Shown here piece after piece: positions 27,445 to 34,549 of a DNA stretch of 64,000 bases (its first letter is position 1; each line of letters begins with the position of its first letter). The notes under the pieces were generated by a model. That model was not told where the DNA came from and did no database searches. It was given only the letters and a program-made list of their open reading frames with translations. Location of the stretch: NCBI GenBank assembly GCA_965223665.1, contig OZ245011.1:3072001-3136000 (forward strand), read 5' to 3'. The translations under genes were made by a program, and so were the position numbers. This DNA is from Nitrospinaceae bacterium. Its GTDB lineage: Bacteria > Nitrospinota > Nitrospinia > Nitrospinales > Nitrospinaceae.

Positions 27445-28407
27445 TTATAAATCTTCCTTTGAATCAAATAATGAACTGATCGAGCTTTCACTATGAATTC
27501 TAATAATTGCCTCTCCTAATAAAGGAGCTACCGACAATATTTTTATTTTTCCTATCTTTTTTAACTCATCGTTAAGAGGAATTGTGTTAGTTGTGATAAT
27601 GGATTTAATTGGAGATTTTTCTATTCTTTCACCAGCAGGACCCGAGAGTACAGGATGGCTACAAGCAGCATGAACTTCCCCCGCTCCCGCGTCCAAAAGT
27701 GCGTTTGTAGCTTCTACCAAGGTTCCAGCTGTATCAATCATATCATCAATTATAACGGCAACTTTGCCTTTGACATCTCCAATAATATTCATCGCTTTGG
27801 CAACATTTGGACCTTCACGTCGTTTATCAATAATTGCCAGGGAGGTTTTCAAACGTTTCGCGAAAGCTCGTGATCTCTCCACACCCCCTGCGTCAGGAGA
27901 AATGATTACGAGGTCAGAAAGATTCATGCTCTTTATATAGTTAATTAAAACATTCATTGCGAACAAATGGTCTACAGGAATGTTGAAAAATCCTTGAATT
28001 TGTCCCGCATGAAGATCCACAGTTAATACACGGTCCGTCCCTGCTGTGTGCAGCAAATCAGCAACCAGTTTTGAAGTAATAGGAACACGGGGCTCACATT
28101 TGCGATCTTGACGTGCATAACCATAATAAGGAATTACCGCGGTGATCCGTTTTGCGGAAGACCGACGTAATGCATCAATCATGATTAGTAATTCCATTAA
28201 ATTGGTATTTCCTGGGGCACAAGTGGGCTGAATGACGAAAACATCTCCTCCTCTTACGTTTTCCTCAATTCGAACGTAAATTTCTCCATCAGAAAAATCT
28301 TTGACCACACTTTTTCCCAGATCGATATTCATATAGGAACAAATATCTTTGGAAAGGTCCAGATTGGCACGTCCTGAAAAAACTAAAACATTTCCGTTAT
28401 CACTCAT
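27445..28407 (-). CDS. prs: Ribose-phosphate pyrophosphokinase
   Basis: [44 protein letters not shown]. Confidence 0.97.
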
Positions 28408-28697: not shown

Positions 28698-29597
28698 TTA
28701 TGGGTAATTGAGCACATTTTCCGGCAGAAATTCCGAAAACTGCGATACCGTCTCTGTAAAAAATATATCCCAATCCCCATCACTACACTCAGCAAAAGCC
28801 CTATTTGCCGAGTTAAACTCTTGAAACATTCCGAAAACAGACGAACCGCTCCCTGAAACTAACAACCCCTGGGGTTGGAAGGAACGTAGTCGATCCTTGG
28901 CCATTTGGACAACCGGATATCGTTTTAAAACAACGGTTTCCAAGTCATTTACCAAATTGGCACCTAATTTAACGATATCCGACTGGGAAAAAAAATCGCT
29001 CAAAATGCTAATATTTTTTTGATTTTTTGTCAAATTTAAATTGAGATGTTGATATACCTCAGATGTAGAAACGAATATCTTTGGAAAAATCAGTATAACA
29101 TAGCATTTTTTAAAGGGTTGCAAGGGAGTGAGTTTTTCTCCACGACCTTGCCCTCTTGCTGCAGGTGAACATAAAAAAAAGGGTACATCTGAGCCAATTT
29201 GAGCAGATATTTCTATTAATTGTTTTCTTTTAAGACCAAGGTCCCAAAGGTAATTTAGCCCCAATAAAGCTCCAGCAGCATTCCCGCTTCCACCTCCTAG
29301 GCCTGCACCGACGGGAATCCTCTTTTTTAAATGTATTTTACAGCCTTTTTCCGAAATTTCAGGAAATTGCCTCTTCAGTAATTGGGCGGATTTGCAAATT
29401 AAATTAGAAGAATCTGTTGGGATATTAGGATCATTGCAAGTTAATGATATGTTACTGGGTTGGTTTTCGATTTCTAAGCAATCAAACAAATTGACCATTT
29501 GAAAGATGGTGTCCAATTCATGAAATCCATCTGGTCGTTTCCCTAAAATGGATAACCCAAGATTAATTTTAGCAGGAGTTTGAATACTTAGTTTCAT
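28698..29597 (-). CDS. ispE: 4-diphosphocytidyl-2-C-methyl-D-erythritol kinase
   Basis: PAKINLGL..LGKRPDGFHEL, KRIPVGAGLGGGSGNAA, GSDVPFF, NDLE, SGSGSSVF. Confidence 0.96.
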   Translation of the reverse strand: MKLSIQTPAKINLGLSILGKRPDGFHELDTIFQMVNLFDCLEIENQPSNISLTCNDPNIPTDSSNLICKSAQLLKRQFPEISEKGCKIHLKKRIPVGAGLGGGSGNAAGALLGLNYLWDLGLKRKQLIEISAQIGSDVPFFLCSPAARGQGRGEKLTPLQPFKKCYVILIFPKIFVSTSEVYQHLNLNLTKNQKNISILSDFFSQSDIVKLGANLVNDLETVVLKRYPVVQMAKDRLRSFQPQGLLVSGSGSSVFGMFQEFNSANRAFAECSDGDWDIFFTETVSQFSEFLPENVLNYP

Positions 29598-29613: not shown

Positions 29614-30393
29614 CTATGAACCGGGTAAATTTAATCGAAAGGATTCATCCGGAATTCCTTGGTTAATTTTTGGATCAAAATATTTTAATGAAACTTCTTC
29701 ACCCGTTGTATTTTTATTGATATGAATTTTATTAGGAAAAATGTATTCATCCTGGGTTCTATAATCTTGCCATTGAACTGTATAAGCAATTTTTTGATTT
29801 TTCCAATGTTCCATCCGGGTGGGAACCATTTTTAAAGGATCTATTTCAATTATTATTTGGTCTCCAATTTCGTTAGAAGTAGAAAGACTCACAAATGGAG
29901 ACCCCTCAAGTTTTTTTTCGTTTTTTACTTGCATGGACTCAATTCCTGGAATATTACCAGAAAAAATTTGCACATATTTCCGAAAATCAAATTGAGTCCC
30001 CAGCATTTGAAATAAAATATCCCAAACTTCTAATCCTTTATAAACTTTTTGATTGCTCACATCATATAGGAGTGAATTAGAATTGGAAACTAGTAATACA
30101 CCTAAGGGTTGACCAAATATATTTAAAGTATCCAGACGTACCATCGTGTTGTTACGAATCAGCAACGTTTGGCGGAAGGTTTGTTTGCTACTGGAAGATT
30201 GAATTGAGGTTTTTACAAAAGACTTTAAATCCTGAAAGCGTTTTTGTCTTTCTTTTAAATTGTTGAGTAATTCATGGGAAGAATATTGGAGTGAGTTATC
30301 CTGGATTTCAGGAGCAATAGTTTTTGTCTGGCACGCACAAAGTAACAATAAGCATAGACCAAACCACCTTCTTAAGGGTTGAAAATGGTGCAT
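29614..30393 (-). CDS. LolB-like / DUF4292-like outer-membrane lipoprotein
   Basis: Lipobox LLLLCAC, RLDTLNIFGQP motif, lolB position between TPR gene and ispE. Confidence 0.6.
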   Translation of the reverse strand: MHHFQPLRRWFGLCLLLLCACQTKTIAPEIQDNSLQYSSHELLNNLKERQKRFQDLKSFVKTSIQSSSSKQTFRQTLLIRNNTMVRLDTLNIFGQPLGVLLVSNSNSLLYDVSNQKVYKGLEVWDILFQMLGTQFDFRKYVQIFSGNIPGIESMQVKNEKKLEGSPFVSLSTSNEIGDQIIIEIDPLKMVPTRMEHWKNQKIAYTVQWQDYRTQDEYIFPNKIHINKNTTGEEVSLKYFDPKINQGIPDESFRLNLPGS

Positions 30394-30404
30394 GACTGAG
30401 AATA

Positions 30405-32672
30405 TTAATTAGAGTGAAGAAGGTCGGATGCTTTTTTTATTTTACTCCGTAGATCTTTAGGCGTCGGCAACTCCTCTGAAGGGGCTTTGAATTTTTGGAG
30501 AGTTAAAATCAAACTGGTTTTCCAAGCTTTAACGGCCTCAGTGAGATTATCCATTGAGAAATAAACATCTCCCAAATGATCGTATAGAACAGGATCAGGG
30601 TCTATATAAATCAGAGCTTTTTTAATTTGCGTCAAGGCTTTTTCGTGCTGACCTTTTTTATGATAAATCCAACCCAAGCTATCTAAAAAATAAGCGTTCT
30701 TTGGTTGAATGGTCAAAGCTTGCTCTAAATGGTCAACAGCTTCATCTAACGCTTCTCCCCGTTTGGCATAAGTATATCCAATAAAGTTATGAGCATTTGA
30801 ATTACTTGGATTAATGGCCAAAGTTTGTTTCATACTTTTGATGGCTTGAATGTCATTTCCAACACGGGAAAAAAGGGTTCCCTGCTCATAGAAATATGAA
30901 TCTTTTTGATCATTTAATGAAATGGCTTTATTAATATTACGGATGGCTTCTTCATTTTCGTCAAGAGACATGTGCGCTAATGCTAAAGCATGATAAAGAC
31001 GGTCATTCTCAGGCTCCAGAACTAAAGCTTTATTAAGATAATCCACCGAAACTTTCATTTCCCGATTTAAACCATGTAGTCGAGCCAACTGTAAAAGAAC
31101 ATCTACTGAATTTGGGTCTGGGCTATTGGCTCTTGATAATTCGACTTCTTTAATGGCCTTATCCATTCTTCCAAACAATTCGAAAATTTTTGCAATGGCT
31201 AATCGCAGTTCTCTATCTTCCTCATTGGCAAGTGCAAGTCGAAATTCATCTAAAGCCCCTAAGTATACAGCTTGTTCATAAAATATAGCCCCCAGCATTC
31301 TATGAATATTGGGTTCGTCCCAAGGAAAGGTTGCATCCTTGGAATTGATATTTAAGTTAGTACTTCCAGCATCGGCTTGATTTTTAAAATGCATACTTTC
31401 TAAATGGTTTTTAACTGTCTCGTTACTGGGATCCACTTTTAAAATGATTTGATATTGTTTTGCTGCTTCCTCATATTTTTGTTGTAACTCCAAAACCCTT
31501 GCTAAATTCTGTCGAGCTTCTAAAAGCCCAGGACGTAAATTTATCGATTTTTTAAATTTTTCTTCAGCGCTTTCCATTTCTCCTGACCTCGCTAAAGAGG
31601 TGCCTAAATAATGATAACCCAGAGGATTTCCAGGATCGACGATCGTTACTTTTTTGAACTGCTCTTTGGCTTGATCATATTCTTTAAGGGTTTTTAATAC
31701 ATAACCTGTCAATAACAAAGCTCTGGAGTTTGAGGGATCTATGTCGATTATTTTTTTATAATGTTGAAGGGCTTGTTGGTATTTCCCTTGAGTCGATAGT
31801 ATGTCAGCCATGATCATTCGAATTCTTAAATTGTTAGGGAAATGATTTAGGGCTTCAGTCCCCGATTCCAAGGCATCGTCCAACCGACCTGTTCTTAAAT
31901 ATAAGATAACGAGTTTTGTATAGTGTTTTTCTTGAGTAGAATCGTATCTTACGACTCTTGAAAAATGCAACGCGGCACCATCAAAATCTCCTTCACGTTC
32001 CAATTGCATTGCTTTCAAATAATGAAAATAAGCACGAGGATCGCGATATTCCTTATCAGGGTGTTTTTGTTTTAAAGCATGAATTCGTTTTGATACGAAT
32101 GCTTCTCCCATTTGGGAGGTTTCTGGGTCATGTTCAAAGTTTACTTTAGGAGTTGTAGAGCATCCGTAAAATAATATTACCGCTAAAATCCAAGTGCTGA
32201 ATCGAAATTTTGAGGCCAATCGAACCAAAGTTTTTTTCAGCTCGGGATCTTTAATATGTTTTGTGGATTCTTTTGTATTTGAGAAATTCATGGTTTTAAA
32301 CGGATGGGCTATTGGTTTGTTTTTCATTTGTAATTTAGGGTGATTTTCTTTTAAAGATTGTGGTTTTACGCGAAATCTGATTTTTTGAAAATTATATTTA
32401 TCTATGTTTCTATTGAGAGCTTCAAGAATTTTTTTTTCTAAAGATTTTAATGGTGTCAACCATTCTGGTCCTAAGACTTCAACAAAAAGGGCCGTGTCTG
32501 AAAAATGGTCCACTCGTGTTTGGCGAGAGATTTCCTTCCCAACAATTAAATTCCAATTTATAGAGATTAAATCAAATTCCCGTTCTGATAATTTAGGAAT
32601 TTTTTTAAGGCTATTTTGCAATGTGGAATTTATGTTGAACCAATGGGTTTTATTTTTTTTTTGAAATTCCAT
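30405..32672 (-). CDS. DciA(DUF721)-like domain fused to a TPR lipoprotein
   Basis: N-terminal NWNLIVGKEISRQTR...LFVEV...W...L..LEKKILEALN...KIRFRV...IKDPELKKTLVRL; lipobox-like ILFYGC at Cys171; many TPRs including NAHNFIGYTYA and YFLDSLGWIYHKKG. Confidence 0.75.
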   Translation of the reverse strand: MEFQKKNKTHWFNINSTLQNSLKKIPKLSEREFDLISINWNLIVGKEISRQTRVDHFSDTALFVEVLGPEWLTPLKSLEKKILEALNRNIDKYNFQKIRFRVKPQSLKENHPKLQMKNKPIAHPFKTMNFSNTKESTKHIKDPELKKTLVRLASKFRFSTWILAVILFYGCSTTPKVNFEHDPETSQMGEAFVSKRIHALKQKHPDKEYRDPRAYFHYLKAMQLEREGDFDGAALHFSRVVRYDSTQEKHYTKLVILYLRTGRLDDALESGTEALNHFPNNLRIRMIMADILSTQGKYQQALQHYKKIIDIDPSNSRALLLTGYVLKTLKEYDQAKEQFKKVTIVDPGNPLGYHYLGTSLARSGEMESAEEKFKKSINLRPGLLEARQNLARVLELQQKYEEAAKQYQIILKVDPSNETVKNHLESMHFKNQADAGSTNLNINSKDATFPWDEPNIHRMLGAIFYEQAVYLGALDEFRLALANEEDRELRLAIAKIFELFGRMDKAIKEVELSRANSPDPNSVDVLLQLARLHGLNREMKVSVDYLNKALVLEPENDRLYHALALAHMSLDENEEAIRNINKAISLNDQKDSYFYEQGTLFSRVGNDIQAIKSMKQTLAINPSNSNAHNFIGYTYAKRGEALDEAVDHLEQALTIQPKNAYFLDSLGWIYHKKGQHEKALTQIKKALIYIDPDPVLYDHLGDVYFSMDNLTEAVKAWKTSLILTLQKFKAPSEELPTPKDLRSKIKKASDLLHSN

Positions 32673-33061
32673 TTAATTCCTGAGGAAAAACCTCTTTAAA
32701 GGCTTACTCCTATTTTAAAAATTATCTGGCCTATTTAAAAGCCTTATTTTTCTATTTGCTTTTTCTTTCAAAATTTTAACCTTTTTGGCGATAATTATTG
32801 TTGAAATATGTGCAGAAATTAACGGGTTCGAGCTTTGGAGAATATTTTTAGGAATGAATACCATTAATAAACTTACCATTTCTAATAGTAGTCCAGAATC
32901 CTTTCATTTTTTAGGTGCACCAATTTTATTTATAGGGAATTTGTGTATTCATTGATGGGTTAAGTTAATATTTGTAGGGCATACCCTAATAGTGTGTGTA
33001 GCAAATTGAAACAACCCTAAATCACCTTTATCTAAATAATCAATACTGTATATTACGATCC

Positions 33062-34549
33062 ATGCGTTTAAAAACTTTTATAACAATATTGGGATTATTG
33101 AGTCTATTATTTTATTTTTGGATGTCGACTCTCTCTTTTGAATTTAATTGGGGAGAAGGCTATGAAAATCGTCCCATTCCTACTTACCTATTTCTCTATT
33201 TTTCTCTCTTTGTTATTTACGCAATTGCCGTTTGGGGGGTTCGGAAATATCCATTCCAAGGCCGTCATTTTTTTGTATGGATAATATTTGGCCTTTTATT
33301 CCGCATTACAATTTTACCAGCACAGCAAATTCAGGAGGATGATGTTTATCGATATTTATGGGATGGGAAAGTGTTTGCTAATGGTATCAATCCCTTTAAA
33401 TATGCTCCAGATGAGATTAACAGTTTTAAGGAATTTATGATAAAGGAACCGCAAAGATTTCAAAAAACTTATAATGAGAAAAGTATTCGCGAACTTACAC
33501 GTCTCTACCAATTAAAATGGGAAAATGAAACAAGCTTAATTTTTATGGAAAGGATCAATCATCCCCACGTGCCCACAATTTATCCTCCTATGGCGCAGTA
33601 TGTTTTCAGATTGGTGAACCACATTAAGTCAGATAGTATATTGGGAATGCGCTTAGCTTTTCTGTTTTTCGATTTCATTTGCCTATTTTTTATTATTGCC
33701 ATTTTAAATCGGTTGGGTTTGGATAGAAATTTGGCTCTTATATATTATTGGTGTCCACTTGTAATTAAAGAAACATTTAACTCAACCCATTTAGATATAA
33801 TTGGCATTGCCTTTTTATGCATTGCCCTCTATTACTTTGTTTGCAATAAGTTTTACCGAGCTCATAGTTTTTTAGCCTTTAGTGTTTTGGGAAAATTGTA
33901 TTCAATCATTCTTTTGCCACTTTATATAAAACAGATTTGGATAAGTAATAGAGGAACTTTTTCTTTGAAACCTATTGGGATTAGCCTAATTCTATTTTTT
34001 GGAGTCATCGGTTTTTTTTATACGCCTTTTCTGGATATAGGCCCAAAGGCGTTTGAGGGACTAAGAACTTTCAGTACTTATTGGGAAAGTAATGACAGTT
34101 TATTTTCAATTATGGTTTGGTATTTCCGGTCTATGGTGGAAATTGAATCTCGTGGTCCAGTGGGTTTATCGTATGATTTGCCTTCTTTGTTGAGTAAGAT
34201 TACGGTTGTTCTCATTTTAGGGGGCATATTATTTTACTTTTTATTCCGAAAAAGAAAAGAACCCTTATCTCCTATTCAGCCTATAAAAGAACAATTTATT
34301 ATTATGGCACTGGTTTTTTTATTGAGTCCGGTGCAAAACCCTTGGTACTTATGTTGGGTTCTCCCTTTTTTATGTATTTTCCCATACCGTTCATGGATTT
34401 TACTCACCGGGTTAGTTGGCCTTTATTATCTTGATTTTTATTTCGACTACCAGGAAATTCAACATTATACGAAATGGACACCCTGGTTGGAATACCTTCC
34501 TTTTTATTTACTTTTAGGATGGGAATTTTTAAAGAAGCGGACAAGTTAA
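33062..34549 (+). CDS. GT-C fold integral membrane glycosyltransferase (GT87/DUF2029-like)
   Basis: EDDVYRYLWDG, GINPFKYAP, INHP.VPTIYPP.AQ, YYWCPL, HLD, SPVQNPWY; many TM helices. Confidence 0.8.
   Translation: MRLKTFITILGLLSLLFYFWMSTLSFEFNWGEGYENRPIPTYLFLYFSLFVIYAIAVWGVRKYPFQGRHFFVWIIFGLLFRITILPAQQIQEDDVYRYLWDGKVFANGINPFKYAPDEINSFKEFMIKEPQRFQKTYNEKSIRELTRLYQLKWENETSLIFMERINHPHVPTIYPPMAQYVFRLVNHIKSDSILGMRLAFLFFDFICLFFIIAILNRLGLDRNLALIYYWCPLVIKETFNSTHLDIIGIAFLCIALYYFVCNKFYRAHSFLAFSVLGKLYSIILLPLYIKQIWISNRGTFSLKPIGISLILFFGVIGFFYTPFLDIGPKAFEGLRTFSTYWESNDSLFSIMVWYFRSMVEIESRGPVGLSYDLPSLLSKITVVLILGGILFYFLFRKRKEPLSPIQPIKEQFIIMALVFLLSPVQNPWYLCWVLPFLCIFPYRSWILLTGLVGLYYLDFYFDYQEIQHYTKWTPWLEYLPFYLLLGWEFLKKRTS

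Follow-up and report, generated by a model that had tools for sequence, protein, structure and literature searches.

In most bacteria the helicase helper is DciA, a protein whose regulation is poorly understood. A 64,000-nucleotide stretch of the genome of a Nitrospinaceae bacterium (contig OZ245011.1, positions 3,072,001 to 3,136,000; hereafter the window) raises the question of how such a replication protein can be translated as one chain with a protein predicted to be exported to the periplasm, and what becomes of that chain. A single open reading frame (ORF) of 755 aa, at 30405..32672 on the minus strand and starting with ATG, joins a DciA half in frame to a tetratricopeptide repeat (TPR) lipoprotein half; the initial annotation had described this ORF correctly in every particular. 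Its parts are as follows.

30405..32672, minus strand: whole fused ORF (P0001), 755 aa plus stop, with Pfam matches to DciA and TPR
32678..32681, minus strand: Shine–Dalgarno (SD)-like AGGA, 5 nt upstream of the ATG at 32672, read from the sequence
32373..32633, minus strand: DciA (PF05258) KH-like domain, residues 14–100, by Pfam, AlphaFold2 pLDDT and PDB fold matches
32259..32372, minus strand: variable linker, predicted disordered, residues 101–138, by poor conservation, pLDDT <50 and a dN/dS of 0.375
32202..32258, minus strand: DciA C-terminal tail helix, residues 139–157 (I-K-D-P-E-L...L-V-R-L...K-F-R), by alignment with stand-alone DciA tails
32160..32201, minus strand: signal-peptide h-region (residues 158–170, 13 aa) and lipobox F-Y-G-C171, by homology of the Cys with that of split relatives
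30408..32162, minus strand: predicted mature TPR lipoprotein, Cys171 to residue 755, 585 aa, LbcA-like by position, from TPR families, Cys position and the PA4667 match
32217..32228, minus strand: in-frame TTG codons, Leu149 and Leu152, candidate nested starts, unsupported (without an upstream SD-like motif), from the sequence

Along the chain come a full DciA including its tail, a signal segment of lipoprotein type placed internally, and a TPR part that resembles LbcA. PF05258 matched residues 14–100 at 44 bits (cut-off 24), over profile positions 2–89 of 89, and many Pfam TPR families matched over approximately residues 230–720, so that both families proposed for a profile scan were found in this ORF. 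The tail motif runs I140-K-D-P-E-L...L-V-R-L...K-F-R157. The segment from K155 to C171, KFRFSTWILAVILFYGC, contains a 13-residue uncharged stretch that ends in F-Y-G-C171, and the basic end of the DciA tail doubles as the n-region of this internal signal peptide. The initial annotation had also read a complete DciA/DUF721 with its tail at the N terminus, a basic-hydrophobic lipobox segment ending at C171 and followed by TPRs, and in-frame TTG codons at 32228 and 32219 before the signal segment; the full-profile match and tail alignment bear out the first, sequence and Pfam the second, and the two codons are present as Leu149 and Leu152.

The fusion is not an artefact. A PF05258 profile search of 120 genomes of the phylum, all labelled as the same class or nearer, gave matches in 109, always one per genome, and the window genome, 98.6% complete, holds one locus only (48.6 bits in the genome search). 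By our count from the table of these matches, 42 of the 109 loci are complete open frames of 740–854 aa with DciA, none of them interrupted by a stop or frameshift, and three further fused loci (G018, G019 and G081) enter the TPR part before the contig ends, which settles the recurrence across Nitrospinota assemblies proposed earlier as a check. Several fused loci sit in single-contig genomes. In the window's order (families f1–f4), 44 of 93 DciA loci are fused (20 in f1, 15 in f2, 6 in f3 and 3 in f4), and the remaining 49 are short frames of 101–165 aa, all in f2; the fusion covers three whole families and part of a fourth.

Protein libraries gave the same picture. A profile search of 1.84 billion representative proteins returned 13,574 matches at E up to 0.001, and the best 150 of these include 14 of 739–772 aa and 4 of 339–418 aa. 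The junction is alike in the 16 proteins inspected (12 of the 14 long ones and the 4 shorter), with the lipobox Cys after it in 15; the exception, P0025, has Cys residues within the hydrophobic segment, not after it. In the ESM Atlas, a 742-aa cluster labelled Nitrospinota has 59 members, each with DciA and TPR. A related-locus search with the single protein found one same-genus locus, and word-index protein searches (residues 1–175 at near lengths, and an alignment at longer lengths) returned only the protein itself, a limit of the word index, as the profile searches found relatives. Over the junction itself, Logan contigs run without gap or indel at 32021–32574 (run X2) and 32088–32574 (run X3), another check that had been proposed; these contigs may stem from the window's own assembly sample and are therefore weak support alone. 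No Logan piece covers the whole 901 bases queried, and run X1 shares words with the query and yields no contig. A stop or frameshift at the junction is ruled out by the complete frames in relatives together with the contigs over the junction.

The DciA half was modelled with AlphaFold2 over residues 8–174 using 21 aligned relatives. The DciA domain has a pLDDT above 90 and the linker below 50, the tail and h-region form one continuous helix, and the top three Foldseek matches of the domain in the PDB are 7ykm and 8a3v chains C and D (E 1e-4 to 5e-4). These structures, the D. radiodurans DUF721 domain and the V. cholerae DciA–DnaB complex, share with the window DciA a KH-like domain, a disordered linker and a helical tail, and the stand-alone DciA of the sister orders has exactly this KH–linker–tail form with the same tail motif. 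Tail residues 139–157 align with the stand-alone DciA tails of sister families f5, f6, f7 and f9 (in a fifth, f8, the protein ends before the tail), and many 150–175-aa library matches cover the profile to approximately position 158, that is, through the tail; its presence in these proteins identifies the tail as DciA's own. In the accessible part of the published V. cholerae work, this C-terminal tail is the element that docks on DnaB. Stand-alone DciA ends at the tail, whereas the window protein continues without a stop into the hydrophobic segment, the lipobox and a predicted 585 aa of exported TPRs.

Selection on the parts was estimated by the Nei–Gojobori method from 40 within-genus pairs of fused genes, which are not independent of one another. 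The dN/dS was 0.26 for the KH domain, 0.375 for the linker, 0.18 for the tail, 0.26 for the h-region with lipobox and 0.09 for the TPR part, the lowest of the five. On these values the DciA part is being maintained as a protein, and is not decaying as a leader. When DciA (residues 8–157) was modelled in complex with the genome's DnaB, the score was 0.70 against 0.00 for the best control, although this is a textbook pair and the pass may reflect likeness to solved complexes; since a solved complex of like kind exists, it shows that likeness and not binding by this copy. The mark used is reached by 116 of 157 solved complexes and 2 of 215 mismatched pairs. Runs agreed in at least 62% of contacts, with a partner pLDDT of at least 64, and the modelled interface brings DciA residues 10–50 against DnaB residues 231–311. 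The Pfam DciA scores of the order reach at most 54 bits (G095 excepted), versus 59–74 bits in the sister orders.

Some further observations concern DciA and DnaB outside the fused locus. The G095 genome has a 103-aa DciA (locus L080, G095:C55, frame 1834-2143) at 82 bits, far above the rest of the order. A gyrB-like frame follows it immediately, the contig is only 2.8 kb long and the metagenome-assembled genome has 7% contamination, so this DciA may be a contaminant or a second, canonical dciA locus. Five proteins of approximately 283 aa (P0105, P0114, P0115, P0123 and P0131) combine a DciA domain and tail motif with a four-Cys zinc-ribbon-like segment and a C-terminal domain of approximately 90 aa. 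In P0049 (2398 aa), 29 short stretches match the DciA profile at positions 35–67; this is probably a repeat protein matching by composition. A second DnaB_C match in the window genome (G000:C3:4093-4821, 133 bits, in a 439-aa frame on a small contig) may belong to a plasmid or phage element.

The segment after the tail has several features of a lipoprotein signal peptide. A classical lipobox reads [LVI][ASTVI][GAS]C and follows a short h-region and a basic n-region. In F-Y-G-C171 the Gly at −1 fits this rule, whereas the Phe at −3 and the Tyr at −2 depart from it; the relatives mostly have L-[AS]-N-C, with Asn at −1 in 32 of 37. The lipobox Cys is kept in all 37 fused forms examined, the h-region is 13–16 residues long in 36 of them, and the ten residues before it carry a net charge of +2 to +5 in 35; the window protein has a 13-aa h-region and +3 over the preceding ten residues. 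An h-region of 13–16 aa, a kept Cys and a basic flank describe a cleavable signal peptide, and this length is short for a permanent membrane span. Cys171 falls, in the alignment, on the lipobox Cys of the split relatives, whose lipoprotein signal peptides are of the ordinary N-terminal kind; there and in the sister orders the homologous Cys lies 19–50 residues from the protein's own start, and here it is residue 171. Ordinary lipoprotein precursors, to which the split-lineage orthologues belong, share with the window protein a positive n-region, an h-region and a lipobox ending in Gly-Cys, but their signal peptide is N-terminal, whereas that of the window protein stands behind 157 residues of folded cytoplasmic protein. 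Lgt (PF01790, 232.8 bits) and LspA (PF01252, 137.2 bits) are encoded in adjacent genes of the genome.

From the Cys onwards, the mature part measures 575–601 aa in the complete loci of the order, fused or split, and 546–572 aa in the sister orders, where the TPR genes have their own ATG and a canonical N-terminal lipoprotein signal peptide. Given the normal lipoprotein signal peptides of the sister-order and split TPR proteins, the TPRs must go to the periplasm and DciA must stay cytoplasmic, with the inner membrane between the two halves. P. aeruginosa LbcA (PA4667), the TPR lipoprotein partner of the CtpA protease (7rqf, 8sxe), has a similar mature size and matches colinearly (query 375–548 against chain 348–521, 54.6 bits), although many unrelated TPR proteins score higher; the genome has two S41 peptidases. 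By position and size we class the TPR part as LbcA-like and not as a proven orthologue. At one locus of another genome (L063, G113:C87, 2029-3913) the TPR gene is broken into two frames, by a frameshift or an assembly error.

How old is the fusion, and in which direction did it go? In the sister orders (f5, f7, f8 and f9), dciA and the TPR gene are separate but adjacent: dciA, 126–192 aa from stop to stop, is followed at once and often with an overlap by the TPR gene, and then by a DUF4292 gene, ispE and prs, although the loci of f7 and f8 show no DUF4292 match. We built a tree from the mature TPR sequences (69 rows, quick IQ-TREE with LG+G4, rooted on these four families), without the loci cut by contig ends, the loci with N, and G046, G095 and G112; it describes one protein and has some long branches. 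On this tree the fused or split state changes at least 7 times, at least 6 of them forced by starred branches, against approximately 23 changes with shuffled labels. We infer that the genes fused once, at the order's base. Read in this way, the tree points to about five subsequent fissions, in genera g11, g14 and g17, in one genome of genus g20 (G082) and in g6 together with g22, and a separate fusion in G109 (f7), whose two congeners are split. In the split genera of f2, DciA stops right after the KH domain and a decayed tail motif lies within the n-region of the TPR signal peptide, and in G021, G027 and G030 the two genes stand in the same frame with one stop codon between them. Such remnants support the direction from fusion to fission.

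A start site inside the fused gene would make such a fission easy. Fourteen fused genes (in genera g3, g5, g8, g10, g12, g13, g16, g18, g20 and g21) have a Met just before the tail, and the Gly codon two to three codons upstream of it is GGA in 12 and GGG in 1, giving AAGGA 6–9 nt before the ATG; GGA accounts for 22% of the Gly codons in these 14 genes, and such a motif stands before only 18 of the 277 in-frame ATGs inside them. Conservation of this kind at silent sites, spread over three families, speaks for a genuine ribosome-binding site within the gene. In the split genus g17 the TPR gene starts at exactly the pre-tail Met, and 8 of the 10 genes of genus g2 have GAGGAA-CAT with a TTG or GTG behind it; the remaining 2 retain the TTG but no intact GAGGAA. 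With the internal start present, a single nonsense mutation in the linker would complete the fission, which fits the location of all fissions in f2.

No comparable internal site was found in the window's genus or in genus g4, and the window gene has ACA AAA CAT ATT at this place. It has no SD-like motif or ATG between residue 128 and the h-region, and from residue 116 to the hydrophobic segment none of its in-frame ATG or TTG codons has an SD-like motif upstream. The two products from nested starts that the initial annotation had envisaged at 32228 and 32219 have no support in the window genome, as no SD-like motif lies upstream of either TTG; the conserved SD and ATG of the relatives sit elsewhere, just before the tail. 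Since there is no internal ribosome-binding site here, the TPR lipoprotein, the most constrained part, has to come via the 755-aa precursor.

The order also carries a second candidate helicase loader. A 310-aa DnaC-like AAA+ gene lies outside the window (G000:C1:2989150-2990079, also indexed as L099:351-1280:+ and L102:4651-5583) and matches PF01695 at 47 bits. The best PDB relatives of its product are Aquifex DnaC (83.8 bits), E. coli DnaC (56.6), IstB (33.6) and DnaI (32), and it falls below the NCBIfam cut-offs (PRK08116, 121 versus 189; DnaC equivalog, 73.6 versus 357). As a query it had a match in 86 of 102 genomes of the order at 47–89% identity and in 0 of 18 genomes of other orders; among the matches listed of a family search, beyond which there are 29 more, those in the other orders were either full-length IstB or weak hits within frames the size of DnaA. 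That the gene is an IS21 helper or belongs to a prophage is ruled out by the chromosomal context beside flagellar rod and housekeeping genes, by vertical conservation and by a better match to DnaC than to IstB. According to the accessible text of Brezellec et al. 2016 (PMC5109545), DciA is present only in genomes without a resident dnaC/dnaI-type gene. In the window genome a DnaC-like AAA+ protein coexists with DciA, and the order would be an exception to this rule. This co-occurrence, with the lower DciA scores of the order, hints that DciA may have come under weaker constraint once a DnaC-like loader had been gained, so that a read-through fusion could be tolerated. A 90-aa ORF without a Pfam match (L102:4382-4654) overlaps the start of the DnaC-like gene by 4 nt. 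A 249-aa Hda-like protein, also encoded outside the window (L100:213-959, minus strand; Bac_DnaA ATPase plus Hda lid domain) indicates that the genome has DnaA-inactivation machinery of the proteobacterial type.

With modest confidence, we favour the following reading of this genuine fusion: read-through joined two adjacent genes and was fixed long ago, and LspA (signal peptidase II) cuts at Cys171 to give a mature lipoprotein and a DciA with a signal-peptide stub. Beyond the anatomy, the conservation, the purifying selection on every part and the homology of Cys171, which are observed, we infer all that follows translation. The full 755-aa chain would be made, and its internal signal peptide (the basic end of the tail, the 13-residue h-region and FYGC) would target it to Sec with the N terminus inside. 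The TPR part would then be exported, Lgt would lipidate Cys171 and LspA would cut before it, releasing the mature lipoprotein to normal sorting; the next gene encodes a LolA/LolB-like lipoprotein. DciA would be left on the cytoplasmic face with a 13-residue hydrophobic C-terminal stub, tethered until the stub is cleared or slips out. Among the three fates that the initial annotation had offered, a polyprotein split by signal peptidase II is thus the best supported, drawing on the Cys homology, the short h-region and the presence of Lgt and LspA, and a membrane-tethered DciA that links replication to the envelope stays speculation.

Several points weigh against cleavage of an ancient fusion protein at Cys171. 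The Phe at −3 here and the Asn at −1 in most relatives are not those of a classical lipobox, and a lipoprotein signal peptide some 150 residues into a chain is unusual; we know of no demonstrated case. The conserved internal AAGGA-ATG of many relatives means that the lipoprotein may usually be made alone, with the full chain a minor product, and in the window gene an SD-independent start at the A-rich stretch before TTG149 may be possible. About five fissions, as read from the tree, would show the fusion to be dispensable, and as DciA after fission is the KH domain only, the tail may not be needed. The fusion in G109, a genome without the DnaC-like gene, weakens the idea that this loader relaxed the demands on DciA.

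The alternative that survives best is that the lipoprotein precursor comes from an internal start, the full chain being either a by-product of a lost dciA stop or the sole way in which DciA is made. This is unlikely in the window genome and gains in plausibility in the AAGGA-ATG lineages, where the motif precedes the Met in 13 of the 14 genes despite the modest share of GGA among their Gly codons. The use of this very Met as the TPR start in g17, the GAGGAA-CAT with TTG or GTG in g2, and the occurrence of fissions only in f2, where the internal site exists, speak for it too. However, the window genome and genus lack both the Met and the SD-like motif, as does g4, and the two TTGs have no SD although the gene's own start has AGGA at −5. 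A full-length chain would also still be made and still need a fate.

An uncleaved bitopic protein, with DciA in the cytoplasm and TPRs in the periplasm as a permanent envelope–replisome link or signal path, we consider improbable. One ORF is conserved over the three families and part of a fourth, the tail and h-region are modelled as one helix and both halves are under purifying selection, but the h-region is short for a stable membrane span and a mere anchor would have no need of the Cys kept in every fused form. Repeated fissions have left two intact, functional-looking genes, and the sister orders have separate proteins. A bolder form of the cleavage reading, in our opinion a long shot, would make DciA the cytoplasmic pro-piece of an outer-membrane lipoprotein precursor: every DciA would be tethered at the Sec/LspA site and freed only by maturation and signal-peptide clearance, so that its handling of DnaB (in initiation or restart, alongside the DnaC-like loader) would be gated by lipoprotein biogenesis. 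If true, replication would be coupled directly, at the molecular level, to the growth of the envelope, and a signal peptide with a functional protein attached would exist in nature.

That DciA is a relic, which lost its function after the DnaC-like loader took over and survives as the long leader of a lipoprotein gene, is very doubtful. The DnaC-like gene is conserved in this order only, the order's DciA scores lie below those of the sister orders and the tail is lost in split forms. Against this stand the dN/dS of the KH domain and tail, the 42 complete fused frames free of stops and frameshifts, the retention of an intact stand-alone KH-domain gene in the split lineages, the confidently DciA-like fold and a DnaB complex model that passes its controls. 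Last, an assembly or sequencing artefact that joined two genes has practically no chance of being the explanation and is refuted at the window locus. Assembly errors could account for single cases such as G109 or G082, the latter with a frame shift inside genus g20, but the complete fused frames come from independent assemblies, several of them single-contig genomes, the junction contigs have no gaps and the protein library holds 14 fused representatives.

Part of this is already known. Blaine et al. 2022 (bioRxiv 10.1101/2022.01.24.477630) list, in the accessible part of the preprint, 36 DciA homologues with TPR domains in Nitrospinae and Ca. Rokubacteria, and treat the TPRs as replication-linked protein-interaction domains; these architectures have the same domain pair, in the same phylum, as the window protein. 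In that part of the text the word 'transmembrane' is absent, and nothing is said of a signal peptide, lipobox, synteny, fusion or fission history, internal start or DnaC-like gene. A 724-aa ESM Atlas cluster at score 0.93 is, beside the statement in this preprint, the sole trace of the Ca. Rokubacteria fusions. The preprint is the only literature that we found on DciA in Nitrospinota. In the texts accessible to our search no link between DciA and lipoproteins was found, the co-mentions concerning medicine or in-silico drug-target mining. No paper was found on the membrane topology of the fusion or on its order-wide age and repeated fissions, although the supplementary tables of Blaine and Brezellec, outside this search, may list these accessions. 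The same holds for the doubling of the tail as a signal-peptide n-region, for the conserved internal start or its lack in the window's genus, and for the co-occurrence with a DnaC-like gene, where exceptions to exclusivity may stand in the supplementary tables of Brezellec et al., outside this search.

For as long as it has existed, this bacterial order has retained a replication protein translated as one chain with a protein that belongs in the periplasm. Should signal peptidase II split the chain, nature would have a polyprotein in which a signal peptide carries a cytoplasmic protein that is folded and functional; such a case would test the tolerance of Sec, Lgt and LspA for long N-terminal extensions and would bring a replication factor to the membrane. 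The locus also illustrates clearly how gene fusion can be followed by repeated fission, with the internal start making fission a one-mutation event, and the order-wide coexistence of DciA and a DnaC-like protein bears on the published rule of mutual loader exclusion. If the fused chain is only a tolerated by-product, what is left is a point of annotation: the TPRs of 'DciA-TPR' proteins would be periplasmic and have no direct part in replication.

Downstream of the fused ORF lie the following genes.

29614..30393, minus strand: next gene, a 259-aa lipoprotein, Pfam DUF4292 (LolA/LolB-like), in lolB's place, by Pfam and kept after the TPR gene in relatives
28698..29597, minus strand: GHMP kinase of IspE size, by ORF and Pfam
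27445..28407, minus strand: ribose-phosphate pyrophosphokinase (Prs), by ORF and Pfam

The order dciA, TPR, DUF4292, ispE, prs is kept in 8 of 8 loci, and the TPR gene is fused to dciA or directly after it in 37 of 40, with the same genes following in most. In P. aeruginosa the LbcA gene likewise precedes a lolB-like gene, ispE and prs. The initial annotation had placed the TPR gene before lolB-ispE, and its position upstream of an IspE-size kinase stands. The identity of lolB does not, as the DUF4292 lipoprotein matches LolA_like weakly and is not PF03550 LolB; the LbcA locus and the window differ in this gene, and TPR matches are promiscuous. A promoter and terminator scan was uninformative: it gave 20 promoter-like sites where shuffled sequence predicts 19.9, and so provides no ground for claiming an internal promoter. 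Upstream of the fused gene, at 33062-34549 on the plus strand, lies a very hydrophobic ORF of 495 aa without a Pfam match; among the loci of the order searched with this ORF, 20 have a homologue within approximately 5 kb upstream of dciA, divergent at 19 and on the strand of dciA at one (G027).

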